Below are positions 5,272 to 14,702 of a stretch of DNA of 19,092 nucleotides, piece after piece. The DNA comes from Promethearchaeota archaeon (GTDB taxonomy: Archaea > Asgardarchaeota > Lokiarchaeia > Sigyniarchaeales > SOKP01). Each line of letters opens with the position of its first letter. Within the stretch, counting starts at the first letter, position 1. Position numbers and translations under genes: made by a program. Under the pieces are notes generated by a model that was not told the DNA's origin, did not search any database, and worked only from the letters and a program-made list of their open reading frames with translations. The stretch is from assembly GCA_048941265.1 (NCBI GenBank), contig JBHLNT010000036.1, positions 11,253 to 30,344 of the forward strand, in the 5' to 3' direction.

Positions 5272-7350
5272 ATGACTTTTTTTTTTGAAGTTCTAAAAAC
5301 AGAGATCGGTTTGGCTCGTACTGGAAGGATTTTAGTTTCAAAACAAAATAAACGATATCTCTATACTCCAAATGTTATTATTCCGCTGAATAGTATCTTA
5401 ATGAATCAAATTGATTTCAAAACTGAATTTGAAGACCATGTATTATTTAAAATATCAAAAGAAGGTATATTGAAAAGTGATATTTTAGAAAGAACATTCA
5501 ATTCTGCGAGTTTTTTATACATCAGCAATAGTACATTGGAAAAATTTCAAGAGATAATAGTAAGAAATAAAATTATCTTCATTGAAAAAGGCATTTTTGC
5601 GATAATTCCCTTCAATATACCAACTACTGCGATAAATAAGAATTTTGCAGTGAGAGAAATTGAAAACTATTTGAAAAAAGCTGAAATCATCCTTAAAAAT
5701 AATGCAGACATAAATCTTGGATTGACAGTAAAAATCTTTGATTTTTTAGAATTATCTGATATGTATCTTGAAGTAATTAGAAATAATAAAAATATTAAAA
5801 TATTAAATTTAGCTGATATCTTTGATAATATTTCTAATTTTAGGAAGATTATTGATTTTGTATTAAATTTAAAGCAGAAATTAGACAATAATATCATTTT
5901 AATAGCTTCTGGTAGAATTATTCCTAACTTTTATCCAATTTTAGTTTATTTAGGAATTGATCTAGTCGATAGCTCTTTCTTACTATATTTGTCTTCAGAG
6001 AATTTCTATAATTCTTTAGAATATTTATTACCAATTTATAAAATTAAATATTTACCATGTTCATGCAGAGCATGTAGAGGAGAATTGAAAAATTTACAAG
6101 AAGAAAAATATTCTTCGGAAAAAATAAGCTTGCTAAGCCTCCATAATCTAATTTCAGCAAAAACCTATATGAACAAAATCATACAATATCTAAATTATGA
6201 AGACTTCCGAGCCTTTGTTGAAAAATCCTCCTTAGACGATACTAATTTAATTTCTATGTTAAGAATTTTAGATAAAAAGTATTTTGATCTAATTAAGTAT
6301 GAAACTCCAATCACCCAAAAAAATAAAAAAGTGAATTGTCTTGGATCACTTTCATATCATAGACCAGACTTTCAGGTTTTTAGAGAGAGAACAATTATGG
6401 CATTTGAACCGGAACAACAAACTAGATTAATTATCTTATTTCCTTGTTCAGCAGGAAAACCTTATTCTGAATCTAAATCCCATAAAAAATTTTTGAGTAT
6501 ATTAAGAAAATATCCAGAATTTCCGGATTTTCAAGAAATAATATTAACATCTCCCCTTGGAGCAATTCCAAGGCAATTGGAAAATGTATATCCTGCTAAT
6601 TCATATGATATTTCAGTTACAGGGGATTGGAATGAAGAAGAAATAAAAATTTCTGCTGATATGCTCATTAAATTGCTTGAAAAATATGATCCAGACATTC
6701 CGATTATCTGTCACCTCGAAGGAGAATATCTCGAAATTCTGAACAGAGTAAAAAAAGAACTAAAACATAAGTTTTATTTTACAGAAATTTCTCAAAGTTT
6801 AACTACTAAAGAGTCATTGCAATCATTAAAATCTCTGGTTGATTCTAAAATAAAAGATTTTAGCCCAGATGAAAGCATTTCTAAAAAACTATATTTATCA
6901 AAAACCTGGGATCGAAAATTCAATAAAATTTTAGATTATCAATATGGAAAGGGTTCAGGTATAAAAATCCTTAGTAATGGGATAAAAATAAGAAAAGGTA
7001 AACCTCATACTCATATTGAGATATTAGCTTCTAAAACCAATAATTCTTTAGGTGTTTTCAATTATAGTACGGGACAAATAGATCTATCCATAAAGGGGGC
7101 ATCTTTATTGGCACCATCTTCAGAAACTGCAAAAATAATTGTATTTAACGGAAAGAAAATGAGTGGCAATACTTTATTCCGTCCAGGGGTATTAGAATTT
7201 AGTCAAAACCTCGTACCTTATGATAATGTAATAATTTTGGATGAACAGAAAGAAAATATTGTTGGAATGGGACATATTATTATTGGTTCTAATGTTTTAA
7301 GAAATACAAAAACAGGCAGAGTGGCTATAATATATGAAAGTGCTAAATGA
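5272..7350 (+). CDS. arcS: Archaeosine synthase subunit alpha (ArcS/TgtA2): degenerate TGT domain, DUF5591 catalytic domain and PUA domain
   Basis: N-terminal ARTGRI..TP, Zn site CSCRAC...LHN, PCSAGKPYSESKSH, TSPLGAIPRQLE..YP...YDISVTGDW and a C-terminal PUA-like region. Confidence 0.9.
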   Translation: MTFFFEVLKTEIGLARTGRILVSKQNKRYLYTPNVIIPLNSILMNQIDFKTEFEDHVLFKISKEGILKSDILERTFNSASFLYISNSTLEKFQEIIVRNKIIFIEKGIFAIIPFNIPTTAINKNFAVREIENYLKKAEIILKNNADINLGLTVKIFDFLELSDMYLEVIRNNKNIKILNLADIFDNISNFRKIIDFVLNLKQKLDNNIILIASGRIIPNFYPILVYLGIDLVDSSFLLYLSSENFYNSLEYLLPIYKIKYLPCSCRACRGELKNLQEEKYSSEKISLLSLHNLISAKTYMNKIIQYLNYEDFRAFVEKSSLDDTNLISMLRILDKKYFDLIKYETPITQKNKKVNCLGSLSYHRPDFQVFRERTIMAFEPEQQTRLIILFPCSAGKPYSESKSHKKFLSILRKYPEFPDFQEIILTSPLGAIPRQLENVYPANSYDISVTGDWNEEEIKISADMLIKLLEKYDPDIPIICHLEGEYLEILNRVKKELKHKFYFTEISQSLTTKESLQSLKSLVDSKIKDFSPDESISKKLYLSKTWDRKFNKILDYQYGKGSGIKILSNGIKIRKGKPHTHIEILASKTNNSLGVFNYSTGQIDLSIKGASLLAPSSETAKIIVFNGKKMSGNTLFRPGVLEFSQNLVPYDNVIILDEQKENIVGMGHIIIGSNVLRNTKTGRVAIIYESAK

Positions 7351-8422
7351 AAATCATCAGAATCCATTGGCAGAATTTATATGTTCCTTAAGAAAAAGAG
7401 CAATAGCAAAAAAAAGAAAATTTACAAATGAACAGTTAGAAAAACCGGTAAGTTTTTGGACAAAAAATGACAGACTTATAGATGAAATTGGCAAGGAATT
7501 TACGGTGATATTGAGAACTAAGGGATGTAGCTGGGCTTTGGGTGATTTTGGAGGATGTTCGATGTGTGGATACATTCAAGATGCAAATATAAAGGATGTT
7601 CCATCAGATTACCTTATTAAACAATTTGACTATGCACTAAAACGAAAAATGAATGAAATAAATGAACAACAATATAATTATGTGCTTAAAATATTTAATT
7701 CGGGCAGCTTTTTTGACAATTCAGAACTCAATGAAGAGGTTCGCATGCACATTTACCAGAAAATTTCCGAAATTAAAAATATTAAAGAGTTTGTAATTGA
7801 ATCCAGGGTTGAATATTTAACCGCAGACCGCCTTTTAAAACTTAAAAACAAGCTTAAGAATAAATATATCGAAATAGGGATAGGTCTTGAAACGGTTAAC
7901 GATTATATAAGAAACAATTATATTAATAAAAGTTTAATTTATGAGGATTTTCTTGAAGCTGTTAATTTATGTAAGAAATATGATATAGGAGTGAAAGTAT
8001 ATTTGTTGTTTAAACCACCCTTTCTAAATGAACAGGGAGCTATTGATGATTGCATAGAATCAATCAAAATGCTGATGAATTTAAAAGTAAATACTATTTC
8101 AATAAATCCTCTAAATATTCAAAAAGGTTCATTAGCAGAATATTTATGGTATCAAAATCGATATAGACCTCCCTGGTTTTACTCTCTTTTCAAATGCCTG
8201 AAAAAAGCAATAAAACAAGAAGATCTAAAAAATTTTAGAATATTATCCGACCCTTCAGGCGCGGGAACTAGAAGAGGAATTCATAATTGCTTAAAATGTG
8301 ATGAAAAAATGATAAGCTTGTTGAAAGAATTTGTTTTAAATCAGGATATAAGTATTTTACATCAAAATGAAATAGATTGCGATTGTAAAATAAAATACCA
8401 TCTTCAACATGATTATCATTGA
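7334..8422 (+). CDS. raSEA: Archaeosine biosynthesis radical SAM enzyme RaSEA
   Basis: ILRTKGCSWALGDFGGCSMCGY (extended Cys motif), KIFNSGSFFD, ESRVE, IGLET, LFKPPFL, YRPPW, RGIHNCLKCD; overlaps arcS by 17 nt. Confidence 0.92.
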   Translation: MKVLNENHQNPLAEFICSLRKRAIAKKRKFTNEQLEKPVSFWTKNDRLIDEIGKEFTVILRTKGCSWALGDFGGCSMCGYIQDANIKDVPSDYLIKQFDYALKRKMNEINEQQYNYVLKIFNSGSFFDNSELNEEVRMHIYQKISEIKNIKEFVIESRVEYLTADRLLKLKNKLKNKYIEIGIGLETVNDYIRNNYINKSLIYEDFLEAVNLCKKYDIGVKVYLLFKPPFLNEQGAIDDCIESIKMLMNLKVNTISINPLNIQKGSLAEYLWYQNRYRPPWFYSLFKCLKKAIKQEDLKNFRILSDPSGAGTRRGIHNCLKCDEKMISLLKEFVLNQDISILHQNEIDCDCKIKYHLQHDYH

Positions 8423-8658: not shown

Positions 8659-8904
8659 TTGAAAGGTTGGGTTAAACTAAGTCTATTCTACATAGGGAAA
8701 TCTAAAAAGCATCAAATATTTAGAGTAAAACGATGGAATAGAAACTTTGAAAAAATTTACCGTAAACCTGTTTTTAATATGAATTATGAGGAAATAGGGT
8801 ATATTAAAGAAATATTTGGACCAATAAGCTTACCATTTATTTCCATTAAAACTCTACTGAATAAAGAATTTAGCCCATATAATGAACTTTATGTGAAAGT
8901 CTGA
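8659..8904 (+). CDS. gar1: H/ACA RNP protein Gar1 (archaeal type, no Gly-Arg repeats)
   Basis: VFN...IGYIKEIFGPISLPFISIK matches the Gar1/Naf1 core motif; lies directly upstream of tfb, a common archaeal arrangement. TTG start. Confidence 0.8.
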   Translation: MKGWVKLSLFYIGKSKKHQIFRVKRWNRNFEKIYRKPVFNMNYEEIGYIKEIFGPISLPFISIKTLLNKEFSPYNELYVKV

Positions 8905-8954: not shown

Positions 8955-9926
8955 ATTTCAAGTTGGAATAATGTAAATATAACCCTAGAAGAACTTAATA
9001 AGGAATCTTTTAACACTGATGATAACTGTATTGAATGCGGAAATTCAATTTCTTTTGATGAAAATAGAGGTTTATTTGTTTGTGAAAACTGTGGATTAAT
9101 TGCCTCAGAACGCCATATTGATCAAGGTCCTGAATGGCGTGCCTTTGATGCAGACCAAAAAAAGAAGCGAACTAGAACCGGAGCACCAATGACTTACATG
9201 ATACATGATAAAGGACTTTCGACGATGATTGACTGGAAAAATCGCGATATTTTTGGAAAGGAAATTCCTGCAAAATTAAGAGCTCAGATCTACAGACTAA
9301 GGAAATGGCAAAGTCGTATAAGGGTATCAGATGCAACTGAAAGGAATTTGACATTTGCTTTATCTGAACTGGATCGAATGGCTTCCAACTTAGATATACA
9401 GAAAAATCTACGCGAATGTTCAGCAAAAATATATCGAGATGCTGTAGAAGCACATCTTATTCGTGGACGAAGTATTGAAGGAGTTGCAGCAGCTAGCCTA
9501 TACGCTGCGTGTAGAATGTATAAAGTTCCACGAACTTTAAATGAAATAGCAGAAGTCGCCCGGGTTGATAAAAAGGAAATTGGGCGCTCATTTCGATTTA
9601 TTTCCAAAGAATTGAGATTAAATTTAAATCCTACTAAACCAGTTGATTTTCTCACTCGATTTATTAGTGAATTAAATTTATCTCAAAAATGCCAACAAAT
9701 TTCAAAGAAAATCATAAAAATGGCCGAACAGAGGGGTTTAACCTCTGGAAGGGGGCCTACTGGTGTTTGTGCTGCATCAATATATGCAGCTTCAATCTTA
9801 TGTAATGAGCGTAGAACACAGAGAAAAATAGCCAAAATCTCGCAAGTTACTGAAGTCACGATTAGAAATAGATTTAGTGAGTTAATCGAGAATCTGAATC
9901 TGGGAATCTCACTAAAGAAAAAATAG
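8955..9926 (+). CDS. tfb: Transcription initiation factor IIB (TFB), full length about 323 aa, probable ATT start
   Basis: The frame is open upstream of the track's ATG (9189) back to TAA at 8949. It encodes the Zn ribbon CIECG...VCENCG and B-reader [10 protein letters not shown]...RTGAP, followed by two cyclin repeats and the HTH RTQRKIA...VTEVTIRNR. The exact start is uncertain (ATT 8952 or 8955). Confidence 0.93.
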
Positions 9927-12454: not shown

Positions 12455-12648
12455 GCTATAATAAATTTATGGTCAAAAAATCGAATTTTTTTTTCGCGTC
12501 ATTCAAATGAAAAAGAAGGGAAGATTGTGGATTTATAAACTATTACTTTATTTATATAAATAATATATTATTTATAGGAATAACAATTAAAAATTTCTCC
12601 CAATAATAAAAAATATAATCGAAAAACAGTAATTAGGTTGACAGTATT

Positions 12649-13119
12649 TTGAACTATTCTCAAGATGAGGCTATTTTAAAGAAAATACTCACAAATATCA
12701 TAAATAGTACGGCGGGATTAAAACACGCAATTATTATTGATGATACTGGTCTAACCATCTTAAGTCAATCTAAATTTAGTTTTTCTGCAGATCAAGACAT
12801 TTCTGTTGAAAAAATTGGAGCTATAGGGGGAGCTGTGTTTACTGCCGGAGAAGAGCAAGGATTAATTTTAGGATATGGAAATATTAAAACTCAAATTACG
12901 GAATATGATAAAGGTTTAATATTTTCTGTGAAAACTGGCAATGGTGTACTATGTTTAGCAACTGATCTAAACGTCCAAATCGGTTTTGTGCGTGCTCTCA
13001 TAAAGAAATGGGCTCCAAAAATCGCAACCGTTTTAGAAAGATATTTAAAAAGCAGCGATCAAGAAGCAATTAGCGATGAGCTAAAAGAACTATTTAGCCC
13101 AGATACAATTGGCTACTAA
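12649..13119 (+). CDS. Roadblock/LC7 (MglB/LAMTOR-like) domain protein
   Basis: GLKHAIIIDDTGLTILS, EKIGAIGGAVFTAGE, ITEYDKGLIF, NVQIGFVR; TTG start. Confidence 0.8.
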   Translation: MNYSQDEAILKKILTNIINSTAGLKHAIIIDDTGLTILSQSKFSFSADQDISVEKIGAIGGAVFTAGEEQGLILGYGNIKTQITEYDKGLIFSVKTGNGVLCLATDLNVQIGFVRALIKKWAPKIATVLERYLKSSDQEAISDELKELFSPDTIGY

Positions 13120-13154
13120 AATTATTAATAATAAAGATTAATAAAATTCAGCAT

Positions 13155-13464
13155 TATTGTTGCCTAAAGCACTAACTCTTTCTTCTCATTTTAAGGAAGT
13201 TCCGTTAAGATCGAATAAGTTCTCTCGTGTTAGGCGTTAATTTCATGCCTTTTTGGGAACATAATCATATCTGCGCCCTGGGTACTGGCTTCCACTTCAT
13301 CGCTATGATATTTATCATCACTTAGTTAAGAGCCCATTTTATGCGCAGTTTTTTACTTGCTGATTATTAAACTCTGGATGTTTGCGCTGCTTTGCACACA
13401 TACTCATCTTCGATCATATATGCCCTCGAAGCGCAGTTATTCCATCATCATTTTCCCAATAATG
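13155..13464 (-). ncRNA. Putative three-hairpin box H/ACA pseudouridylation guide RNA
   Basis: Hairpin 1 13435-13383 then aACA; hairpin 2 13348-13271 then AUAUGA; hairpin 3 13235-13162 then aACA. Each has a perfect 6-bp basal stem, an internal pocket and apical GA/GA K-turn or K-loop candidates. G-U pairs work only on the minus strand. Ends are approximate. Confidence 0.75.
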
Positions 13465-13496
13465 AGTATAGAAAAAGAATGTAAAAAATTTTGTGA

Positions 13497-13512
13497 TTTT
13501 ATAATTTTTGTT
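13497..13512 (-). promoter_or_regulatory. Candidate BRE/TATA promoter for the ncRNA
   Basis: Minus strand aacaaaaa-TTATAAAA would put a start site near 13470, just 5' of the structured region. The AT-rich background weakens this. Confidence 0.4.
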
Positions 13513-13610
13513 TGTTATTATGAATTAATTTTAAATAAATAACTATCCTTTTTTTATTTTAATGTAAATCCAATATAATGTAAAGTAATTTAAAAAAAGG
13601 TGATATATTC

Positions 13611-14702
13611 ATGTCCGAAAAAATATGGTCTAAGCTGATACAACTAATTGGAAAGGCAGGACTAACTTTACCTGTTAGCGATACTCTCATTGAAATATTA
13701 CAAACTATAATAACTGAGGAACAAGCAAAGTTTCTTCAAGTTTTTAAGAAACCCTCCCTAACTATTGATCGAATAAAACAAAAAACAGACTTGGACGGAC
13801 CAGTATTAGAAAATATGCTAAAAGATCTGATGCATGAAGGTATTATTGCTAATTTTCTCAATGAAAACACTGGAATCATGGAATATAACCTTATGCCCTT
13901 TATGCCGGGAATATTTGAGCATGTATTAATGCGCGGTGGTACAAGTGAAAAAGAGAAAAAGTTAGCAAGATTATTCGAGAAATTATTTGATGAATTGAAG
14001 GATTTAATTCAAAATAATTATGATATCTTTATACCCCAATTTAAAAACGCTTCACCCGGAACTCATATTGTCCCCGTTGAGGAACAAGTTGAGGTACAAC
14101 AACAAGTAGTCTTACCTTACGAAGAAATAACGAAAATTTTAGAAAAATATGATACATTCGGTCTTGCAATATGTTATTGTAGACATAAACAGGATCTTAT
14201 TAATAATCCTTGTAAATTAGATGCTCCAAAAGAAAATTGCGTAATTGTTGGTAGTTATGCTAAATTTCTAATAGAACAAGAGTTCATTAAGCCGATCTCA
14301 AAAGAAGAGGCATTAAAAACTCTCAAAGAAGCTGAGGAATTTGGACTTGTTCACACAGCATTTCACCAAACTGATGATCCAGAATATAACGAACTTGGTA
14401 TCTGCAGTTGCTGTAAATGTTGCTGTGGTACATTAGAATTGTATCATCGCGGATTAGCGGCAATGAACACATTAACTTCCTATTTAGCAAAAGTGAATGA
14501 AGAGACGTGCGTAGGATGCGGTACATGTGTTGAAAAATGTCCGATGGAAGCGATTGAATTAAATAACATTGCCATTGTAAATGAAGATAGATGCATTGGA
14601 TGCGGAATTTGTGCCCATCACTGCCCCGAAGAATCAATGACATTAAACAGAACAGGTCTTAGAAAGGTTTTTGTCCCGCCACCACGACTAATAAGTGTAT
14701 AA
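13611..14702 (+). CDS. Cys-rich 4Fe-4S dicluster-domain protein
   Basis: N-terminal wHTH-like region, CYCR, ICSCCKCCCG and a C-terminal ferredoxin CVGCGTCVEKCP / CIGCGICAHHCP; GGTGA Shine-Dalgarno at 13599-13603. Confidence 0.88.
   Translation: MSEKIWSKLIQLIGKAGLTLPVSDTLIEILQTIITEEQAKFLQVFKKPSLTIDRIKQKTDLDGPVLENMLKDLMHEGIIANFLNENTGIMEYNLMPFMPGIFEHVLMRGGTSEKEKKLARLFEKLFDELKDLIQNNYDIFIPQFKNASPGTHIVPVEEQVEVQQQVVLPYEEITKILEKYDTFGLAICYCRHKQDLINNPCKLDAPKENCVIVGSYAKFLIEQEFIKPISKEEALKTLKEAEEFGLVHTAFHQTDDPEYNELGICSCCKCCCGTLELYHRGLAAMNTLTSYLAKVNEETCVGCGTCVEKCPMEAIELNNIAIVNEDRCIGCGICAHHCPEESMTLNRTGLRKVFVPPPRLISV

Follow-up and report, generated by a model that had tools for sequence, protein, structure and literature searches.

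The stretch analysed here is a 19,092-nt part of contig JBHLNT010000036.1 from an Asgard archaeon (the window; all coordinates are window positions, the pieces were read on the forward strand and RNA features are given on the minus strand). An RNA locus lies in a 490-nt spacer of this window, between the plus-strand open reading frames (ORFs) 12649-13119, which has a weak match to Roadblock/LC7-type domains (MAPKK1_Int, 20 bits), and 13611-14702, which encodes ferredoxin-type 4Fe-4S domains. In this AT-rich window, the GC content of 13150-13450 is 0.37-0.43, compared with 0.12-0.16 in the spacer at both sides. An initial annotation, made from the letters alone, had proposed a three-hairpin H/ACA guide RNA on the minus strand at 13155-13464. 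We found the three hairpins (HP1, HP2 and HP3), each followed within 1 nt by an ANA box, where that annotation had drawn them, and the locus is very probably a gene for a box H/ACA guide small RNA (sRNA) of about 316 nt, with its own promoter, consisting of a B recognition element (BRE) and a TATA box, and with the ribosomal RNA (rRNA) targets predicted below. The proposed location thus held, but the proposed ends did not: the RNA appears to start about 6 nt inside the end of the interval and to run about 12 nt past its start. The features, in 5' to 3' order of the RNA, are as follows.

13481-13491, minus strand: promoter, a BRE-like AAA and then a TATA box, lying 24-34 nt upstream of a conserved GGG, counted from its first G
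13143-13458, minus strand: predicted transcript of about 316 nt, with its 5' end placed by promoter spacing and its 3' end by the U-run 13146-13143
13454-13459, minus strand: 5' strand of the outer helix (UUGGGA), pairing with 13253-13258 and enclosing HP1 and HP2
13441-13453, minus strand: bulged strand of a fourth kink-turn (K-turn), Kt-0, with canonical stem (C-stem) AAAU, bulge GAU, GA, U and non-canonical stem (NC stem) GGA; resembles box C
13383-13435, minus strand: HP1, with lower stem 13435-13430 / 13388-13383 and upper stem 13423-13416 / 13403-13396
13389-13429, minus strand: HP1 pocket and loop, with 5' guide 13429-13424, 3' guide 13395-13389 and kink-loop (K-loop) 13415-13404 (GA...GA)
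13379-13381, minus strand: ACA box of HP1 (ACA in 79, AUA in 12 and AAA in 5 of 96 parsed copies)
13369-13378, minus strand: non-bulged strand of Kt-0 (UCC, A, GA, GUUU); like box D in copies with U as the variable base
13362-13366, minus strand: 5' strand of the HP2 clamp (UAAUC), pairing with 13262-13266
13271-13348, minus strand: HP2, with lower stem 13348-13343 / 13276-13271 and a conserved 5' block with the guide core 13337-13331
13293-13327, minus strand: HP2 K-turn stems, NC stem 13327-13324 / 13296-13293 and C-stem 13321-13320 / 13303-13302
13297-13323, minus strand: HP2 K-turn core, AA 13323-13322, bulge GAU 13301-13299 and GA 13298-13297
13277-13292, minus strand: HP2 3' side, spacer 13292-13284 and 3' guide 13283-13277
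13268-13270, minus strand: ANA box of HP2, AUA here, directly after the stem (ACA in 73, AUA in 20 and AAA in 3 of 96 copies)
13253-13266, minus strand: 3' partner strands of two helices, the HP2 clamp (13262-13266) and the outer helix (13253-13258)
13245-13249, minus strand: 5' strand of the HP3 clamp (GGCAU), pairing with 13150-13154 (90.8% paired)
13162-13235, minus strand: HP3, with lower stem 13235-13230 / 13167-13162 and a 2-nt bulge 13169-13168
13170-13229, minus strand: HP3 pocket, with CAC/GUG 13229-13227 / 13172-13170, 5' strand 13226-13220 and 3' strand 13177-13173
13178-13219, minus strand: HP3 upper part, with upper stem 13219-13213 / 13185-13178 and a K-turn of GA 13212-13211, bulge AAU 13190-13188 and GA 13187-13186
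13158-13160, minus strand: ACA box of HP3, one A after the stem (ACA in 81, AAA in 14 and AUA in 1 of 96 copies)
13143-13154, minus strand: 3' tail, with the 3' strand of the HP3 clamp 13154-13150, CUGA-like letters and the U-run 13146-13143, a likely terminator

The fold of the single sequence gave only modest evidence of structure on the minus strand, on which the initial annotation had placed the RNA (z = -1.80 against shuffled sequences, and -0.27 for the plus strand); it mixed the hairpins with spurious long-range pairs and was not used to derive the structure. Because this fold barely beats shuffles, the case rests on relatives. A BLAST search of 40 relatives gave matches of about 300-335 nt with 71-91% identity in 22/24 other genomes of the same family, and no match in the 16 genomes that came from three other families of the order. 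A covariance model of HP1 and its enclosing helix, and not of the full-length RNA, matched in 93/101 genomes of the family, nearly always once per genome, in 3/14 genomes of a sister family and in 0/5 of two others. In a 150-genome sample of the phylum it matched, more weakly, at E <= 0.05 in 20/126 genomes outside the family, in 8 families. From an alignment of 23 sequences RNAalifold independently recovered the lower stems of the three hairpins, their upper stems and several long-range helices, with both-side changes in 22/52 pairs. In the 60-pair structure that we propose, 95.0% of the alignment cells were paired, compared with 33.5-41.2% when the partners were slid by 1-3 columns, both-side changes were present in 23/60 pairs, and none of 500 shuffles reached the observed values on any of five measures. 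The same helices hold in 97 compiled homologs from the family. The guide blocks are nearly invariant in this set (NCGAGG in 97/97, GCAA or GCAU in 95/96, AYGGGCU in 96/97 and GUUAGUG in 95/97 copies), and an ANA box follows the lower stem in every parsed copy of HP1 (96/96), HP2 (96/96) and HP3 (96/96).

This pattern of change bears on the possibility that there is no RNA gene here, but a decayed protein gene, considered also in the initial annotation, or a cis-regulatory leader of a neighbour. An ORF of 61 amino acids with a TTG start (13357-13542, plus strand) does overlap, on the other strand, both the RNA gene and its promoter, but it is probably spurious. The substitutions in the stems are compensatory rather than codon-like, the element is served by a conserved promoter of its own on the strand that neither neighbour uses, and it occurs as a single copy of about 300 nt across genera. 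We regard this explanation as hardly credible.

Archaeal H/ACA guides are described as having a lower stem of 7-9 bp and a K-turn or K-loop with the GA stem at 10 layers, as well as 14-16 nt, and in Pyrococcus 14-15 nt, between the ANA box and the pocket-closing pair, the 3' guide duplex being the one that matters most (PMC2377435, PMC4652768). All three hairpins of the RNA have a lower stem, a pocket, an upper stem and a K-loop or a K-turn. In HP1, both-side changes were found in 6/6 pairs of the lower stem and 5/6 pairs of the upper stem among the 97 homologs. The distance from its first 3'-guide base to ACA is 14 nt in 93/95 homologs and exactly 14 nt in this copy, in agreement with the count made from the pocket top in the initial annotation, and 10 layers, counted on the sequence, separate the closing pair from the second G.A pair of a K-loop of the tandem-GA type. 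By all its defining sequence-level features, HP1 is a canonical H/ACA hairpin.

Neither large subunit (LSU) nor small subunit (SSU) rRNA was found in the assembly of the window's own genome, and of five relatives checked only one yielded a fragment of LSU rRNA, with SSU rRNA found in none. Because the window's assembly has no rRNA, the target scans used a congener (G006) that also carries the RNA and has a complete LSU and a partial SSU rRNA. The form searched for was a duplex, an unpaired U plus 1-2 bases, and a second duplex; a stricter version of the test, applied to the LSU and SSU rRNA of the congener with 1141 U, demanded that the duplexes be contiguous.

For the HP1 pocket, the best rRNA site scored 26 and the next one 16, and it was the single site to pass the strict bipartite test. 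Shuffled HP1 guides equalled it in 1% of 300 trials, and in 2% of 200 trials of the strict test. The context of the site is identical in 10/10 LSU sequences of the family that cover it, and it aligns to position 2495 of a 2903-nt annotated E. coli 23S record. We take this record position to be the usual 2496, on the basis of a shift of +1 that follows if the helix 69 pseudouridines are 1911, 1915 and 1917. The predicted target of HP1, LSU U2496 (E. coli numbering) near the peptidyl-transferase centre, is well supported by these matches.

HP1 is itself enclosed by further conserved structure. The leader of the RNA and the linker after HP1 form Kt-0, with a C-stem of 4 bp, tandem G.A pairs and a GGA/UCC NC stem, which could be parsed in 91/97 homologs. 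On the bulged strand, GA is present in 91/91 of these copies and the bulge is GAU in 48 and AAU in 38; on the non-bulged strand, GA is present in 88/91. The C-stem pair beside the bulge is paired in 91/91 copies by three types of pair (CG 42, UA 28, UG 21), and the NC-stem pairs are formed in 91/91, 91/91 and 77/91. By eye, Kt-0 was also seen in copies from 6/7 other families examined, in several of them with a different C-stem. The outer helix around HP1 and HP2 is paired in 84.1% of cases in the 97 homologs; its GGG/CCC core is nearly invariant, its flanking pair changes from U-A to A-U in a few copies, and its existence is moderately supported by these data. The HP2 clamp is 99.6% paired in the same homologs and nearly invariant, while a copy from a distant family (L145) showed, by eye, a different 7-bp helix at its place. 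Both strands of the HP3 clamp are absent together in 3/23 copies, and in other families longer helices of other sequence were seen by eye at the same place. To our knowledge, no clamp helices have been described in H/ACA sRNAs. The clamp helices and Kt-0 may stabilise the RNA or aid its assembly.

The letters of Kt-0 raise the question of whether the RNA is a composite of box C/D and H/ACA elements, in which Kt-0 would recruit Nop5-fibrillarin and guide 2'-O-methylation. Its bulged strand reads like box C, its other strand reads CUGA where the variable base is U (the 3b.3n pair is U.U in 37/91 copies), and there is a precedent in Pab21 of Pyrococcus, which shares its transcript with a C/D motif (PMC2377435, PMC4652768). 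However, the D-like U is not conserved, no C'/D' boxes were found in the RNA, and no free guide of 10-12 nt lies beside the D-like box, the space between the boxes being filled by HP1. This makes a composite C/D RNA very improbable. A C/D box pair at the ends of the RNA (5' RUGAUGA, 3' CUGA) was also considered and rejected, the 3' CUGA not being conserved and the 5' motif pairing after HP1.

HP2 and HP3 differ from HP1 in ending in K-turns with a 3-nt bulge (GAU/AAU), GA and a covarying C-stem. In HP2, both-side changes occurred in 6/6 lower-stem, 4/4 NC-stem and 2/2 C-stem pairs among the 97 homologs. Its K-turn is a true one, in which the two-pair C-stem is capped by a small hairpin and the pair beside the stem, G.A in some relatives, is A.A here. 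The upper stem had been described as imperfect, and we observed the same: HP2 is irregular between the K-turn and the pocket, with 6-9 nt extra on the 3' strand of the upper stem. The distance from the A of ACCC to ANA is 13 nt in 86/88 copies.

An unconstrained scan with HP2 gave several equally good rRNA sites. At one of them, near 2585, the 3' guide makes six Watson-Crick pairs (CUGGGU) just before UUU 2584-2586, and on its other side the 5' guide makes six pairs, one base being mismatched. In 14/97 copies the 5' guide has a U-to-C variant by which a wobble at this site becomes a Watson-Crick pair; by reading of the pairing, it gives no gain at a site near position 1000. The assignment of U2585/2586 as the HP2 target is weakly supported by this complementarity, with the site near position 1000 as an alternative.

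The LSU region concerned varies in length. Just after the 2585-2598 region of the congener's LSU rRNA (L041, G006), we observed that the stretch from the 2496 site to the 2585 site is longer by about 39 bases, and in that of G047 (L039) by about 31, giving spacings of 128 and 115, compared with 84 in most family members. An expansion segment or a small intron near helix 93 could account for these bases.

In HP3, the initial annotation had drawn the upper stem in the register AACU/AGUU, which is paired in 82.1% of cases. A register two positions further in was paired in 94.2% and showed both-side changes, and it replaces the earlier one here; the HP3 pocket is consequently smaller than had been drawn. 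From the G of the conserved 3' block to ACA the distance is 16 nt in 66 and 17 nt in 21 copies (together 87/96), and 26 nt in 5; these lengths lie outside the range given for Pyrococcus. With CAC/GUG closed, the 3' guide can pair with the four bases before U1915 of LSU helix 69, 16 nt from ACA. The helix 69 site was the top match in one of four boundary settings, and under the strict test it shared first place. A genome of family f9 has GUCUC for CUCUC on the rRNA strand predicted to face the 5' guide and GAGAC for GAGAG in its HP3 guide, a compensatory change in the predicted register. The helix 69 loop, with U1915 and/or U1917 as the modified residue and, atypically, several bases left unpaired, is on this evidence a moderately supported target of HP3.

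Two LSU sequences of one genus, L037 (G042) and L043 (G055), look different at this place: upstream of the LSU sequence AAGGUAGCC, an unrelated self-complementary stretch replaces the helix 69 sequence. This suggests an insertion or intron adjoining the predicted HP3 target in G042 and G055.

The promoter was found in an upstream profile of 92 family homologs anchored on the invariant GGG. The most conserved block of this profile is AAA-N-UUUWUAA at -34 to -24, with A at -33 in 88/92 and U at -29 and -28 in 86/92 homologs. The centre of an archaeal TATA box lies about 26-27 nt upstream of the transcription start, and the BRE/TATA letters at 13491-13481 therefore place the start at about 13458/13457. 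We had also considered a start near the GGA of the K-turn, based on TATA-like letters 8-12 nt upstream of GGG, which would leave the outer helix out of the RNA, and dropped it, the BRE/TATA block at -34 to -24 being stronger. A weaker conserved block, UAUUA (13469-13465, minus strand), is situated 8-12 nt upstream of GGG, between TATA and start, and may be a proximal promoter element. Archaeal transcripts terminate at oligo-U runs, and the U-run at 13146-13143 is probably the terminator of the RNA.

At least part of the stretch was present in 20 runs of RNA libraries. Within 12500-14100 (1601 bases), contigs of 151-259 nt from 4 runs of 4 studies cover only 13196-13443, the uncovered parts being no evidence of silence, and one contig of 213 nt is identical to the window. 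They hint at an abundant small RNA.

The genome encodes the proteins that such an RNA would need. Cbf5 was recognised by its DKCLD domain (77.5 bits) and Nop10 with 52 bits, and two genes of the L7Ae family were found (81.5 and 48.7 bits). The sole Gar1-like match in the genome is weak (24.2 bits, below the cut-off of 29.3). A guide of the H/ACA type, which the initial annotation had regarded as functional, is supported in that role by the ANA boxes, their spacing, these proteins and the HP1 match to 2496. In a genome that encodes Cbf5, Nop10 and L7Ae it is expected rather than surprising.

No Rfam family reached its gathering score in the whole window, and at E <= 10 only a chance match to StyR-143 was obtained in 13050-13680. 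RNase P RNA and signal recognition particle (SRP) RNA were considered as candidates and rejected: they have no match in the window and were found elsewhere in the genome (C190, 121.6 bits, and C271, 69.4 bits, the latter below the cut-off of 96.5). Together with the four K-turn signatures and with compact clamp helices, which are not known from H/ACA sRNAs, the lack of an Rfam match could favour a conserved structured RNA that binds L7Ae in some other role, as a scaffold, regulator or processing factor, its likeness to H/ACA guides being incidental. However, an incidental likeness would have to account for an ANA box that, in all parsed copies, follows every lower stem at a fixed distance, and for an HP1 pocket that uniquely matches a verified H/ACA target, and the two RNAs named above have their genes elsewhere. 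We therefore consider such a role distinctly improbable, and read the RNA as an H/ACA guide.

Known guides from other archaea provide a comparison for the three targets. We take the E. coli positions of the pseudouridines made by RluE, RluB and RluC to be 2457, 2605 and 2580. In Pyrococcus, Pab35 makes the pseudouridines that these three enzymes make in E. coli (PMC2377435). This statement and those positions give an offset of 92, by which P. abyssi 2588 corresponds to E. coli 2496 and P. abyssi 2678 to 2586. The P. abyssi RNA Pab40, which is HgcG (PMC4652768), has three motifs, and its motif 1 guides 23S Psi2588 and its motif 3 helix 69 Psi 2016; its counterparts in Thermococcales and Archaeoglobus are Pf7, Pho40 and Afu4, and for motif 2 of Afu4 and Pf7 the expected site is the equivalent of P. 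abyssi 2678, a pseudouridine in halophiles (PMC2377435). Like these RNAs, the RNA described here has three H/ACA motifs in one molecule, with predicted targets in the same 5'-to-3' order. Motif 2 is irregular in both, PMC2377435 noting a poorly stable helix 2 and an extra stem-loop. In contrast to Pab40/HgcG, it has no detectable sequence or covariance-model similarity to that family, and the distance from the HP3 pocket to ACA is longer (16-17 nt). The fourth K-turn around motif 1 and the clamps around each motif also appear to set it apart from RNAs of the Pab40 type, which are not known to have them.

The Haloferax volcanii RNA sR-h45 offers a second parallel. Its stem-loop 1 guides Psi2605, and both helix 69 pseudouridines are made by its stem-loop 2, which leaves UNUN unpaired and has its ACA 17 and 19 nt from the two targets (PMC7075261). 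Psi2605 of Haloferax corresponds to E. coli 2586 by the statement on halophiles in PMC2377435 and our own arithmetic. HP2 and HP3 thus follow the order of the stem-loops of sR-h45, and the long spacing of HP3 (16-17) resembles the 17 of its stem-loop 2, whose reported geometry the predicted pairing of HP3 shares. As described in PMC7075261, sR-h45 differs in having two hairpins, no guide for 2496, a large and possibly pseudoknotted spacer, and neither the K-turn nor the clamps.

Eukaryotic H/ACA small nucleolar RNAs (snoRNAs) share the ribonucleoprotein (RNP) chemistry and act at the same conserved rRNA positions. They have two hairpins with H and ACA boxes, no K-turn, and a separate gene for each site, unlike the RNA found here, which carries three guides, each with a predicted L7Ae site. 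We take yeast snR46 to be the guide for the equivalent of 2496. Helix 69 is guided in yeast by snR191 (PMC7075261).

The helix 69 and 2585 sites were in the match lists early, but they were singled out after the targets of Pab40 were known, and the agreement of three predicted targets with the euryarchaeal order is suggestive and not a clean test. The RNA is best read, from its predicted targets and layout, as an Asgard counterpart of HgcG/Pab40/Pf7/Afu4 and partly of sR-h45, outside the Rfam HgcG family. Since there is no sequence or model match, this kinship rests on the predicted targets.

A number of observations weigh against the reading of the RNA as a guide with these targets. The targets were read on the rRNA of relatives, the window's own genome being without assembled rRNA. 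In HP2 the first paired guide base is 13 nt from ANA, compared with the published 14-16, or 14 if one variable base is counted; the 2585 site fails the contiguity criterion of the strict test, shuffled HP2 blocks equal the true ones in 73% of strict trials, and the guide boundaries in the scored scan came from the match itself. The site near E. coli position 1000 scores equal to or above 2585, neither being significant. For HP3, shuffled guides equalled the helix 69 match in 29% of trials, and in 51% of strict trials; complementarity alone proves little for this hairpin, because shuffled guides often do as well. A 10-nt insertion separates the HP3 pocket from ANA in 5 genomes (distance 26). 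The Rfam model of HgcG gave no match even at E <= 10, and the metatranscriptome contigs carry neither strand nor ends, with DNA contamination of the RNA libraries as a possible source.

Most of these points concern HP2 and HP3, and they lend some weight to a different view, according to which the RNP is of the H/ACA type but HP1 is its only catalytic guide, with HP2 and/or HP3 acting as structural, assembly or rRNA-folding modules (chaperone-like pairing without isomerisation) or at other targets, such as LSU near 1000 or position 591 of the congener SSU. The target matches of both hairpins are not significant alone, and the irregular upper stem of HP2 and the tolerance of HP3 for the insertion before ANA would fit it, as would the different HP2 guide in two copies of the sister family f2 and the lack of HP2 in one genome of family f28. 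On the other hand, no letters of the RNA are more conserved than those in the pocket strands of HP2 and HP3, the distances of these strands to ANA are fixed, as given above, and one compensatory change links the HP3 guide with helix 69. The helix 69 and 2585/2586 sites are, moreover, known H/ACA targets in other archaea (PMC2377435, PMC7075261). We consider it unlikely that HP1 acts alone, and prefer the reading in which all three hairpins are guides.

By analogy with the known RNP, L7Ae would bind HP1 at its K-loop and HP2 and HP3 at their K-turns, and one Cbf5-Nop10-Gar1 unit would dock at each lower stem and its ANA box. The strands of the internal loops would then pair with pre-23S rRNA, and the unpaired uridine at the top of the pocket would be converted to pseudouridine.

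A bolder proposal, which we put forward tentatively and consider possible but rather doubtful, is that of an Asgard 'super-guide': a single RNA combining guides for those pseudouridines that are shared most widely with eukaryotes (2496, the helix 69 pair and possibly 2585/6), in which HP1 lies inside a C/D-like K-turn and the units are clamped. Kt-0 would here be a working L7Ae site, nucleating the folding or protecting the ends of the RNA. If so, the architecture would be new for H/ACA RNAs, with a K-turn of the C/D terminal type and H/ACA guides in a single RNP. As HP1 matches occur in 8 other families and Kt-0 in 6/7 of those examined, the layout would predate the split of several Asgard families.

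The conserved promoter, Kt-0, the clamp helices and the corrected HP3 register are new relative to the initial annotation, whose remark that such RNAs are little characterised in Asgard archaea agrees with a full-text literature search in which no description of H/ACA guides in Asgard or Lokiarchaeal genomes was found. H/ACA guides are difficult to recognise from sequence, and annotations of Asgard genomes lack them; the alignment and model provide a means of closing this gap by finding the family across the phylum. The predicted targets would mean that the archaeal lineage closest to eukaryotes modifies rRNA uridines at sites where eukaryotes also do so, by snoRNAs. The fourth K-turn and the clamp helices are a structural question in themselves.

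By eye, 8 of 10 copies from other families of the phylum had three hairpins and similar guide blocks. Some individual copies deviated from the common form. The 10-nt insertion in HP3 (L005-L009) occurs in one clade of the window's genus and is located between GUG and the basal stem (columns 351-360 of alignment A1); the lower stem may accommodate it as a bulge, or else HP3 has another way of working in that clade. One copy (L151, G222, family f28) has a two-hairpin form with HP1 and HP3 only, a long helix enclosing HP3, and another (L154, G149, family f7) is a simple tandem that lacks the K-turn around HP1 and has a different third hairpin. In G069 the HP1 model matched twice (contigs C124 and C465), one match being at a contig end, which could be due to a duplicate gene, strain heterogeneity or an assembly artefact.

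The Roadblock/LC7-like ORF 12649-13119 (plus strand) is convergent with the RNA at its 3' end, and in two other genomes of the family (L084, L085) the complement of a similar gene end was seen by eye after the RNA; the pairing of the two genes may be syntenic. The Gar1-like match is an ORF of 81 amino acids in the same window (8659-8904, plus strand), 4.2 kb from the guide RNA. Its neighbours are an ORF with TGT, DUF5591 and PUA domains (5272-7350), a radical SAM ORF (7334-8422) and TFIIB (9189-9926), and the domain mix of the first of these presumably points to archaeosine modification of tRNA.

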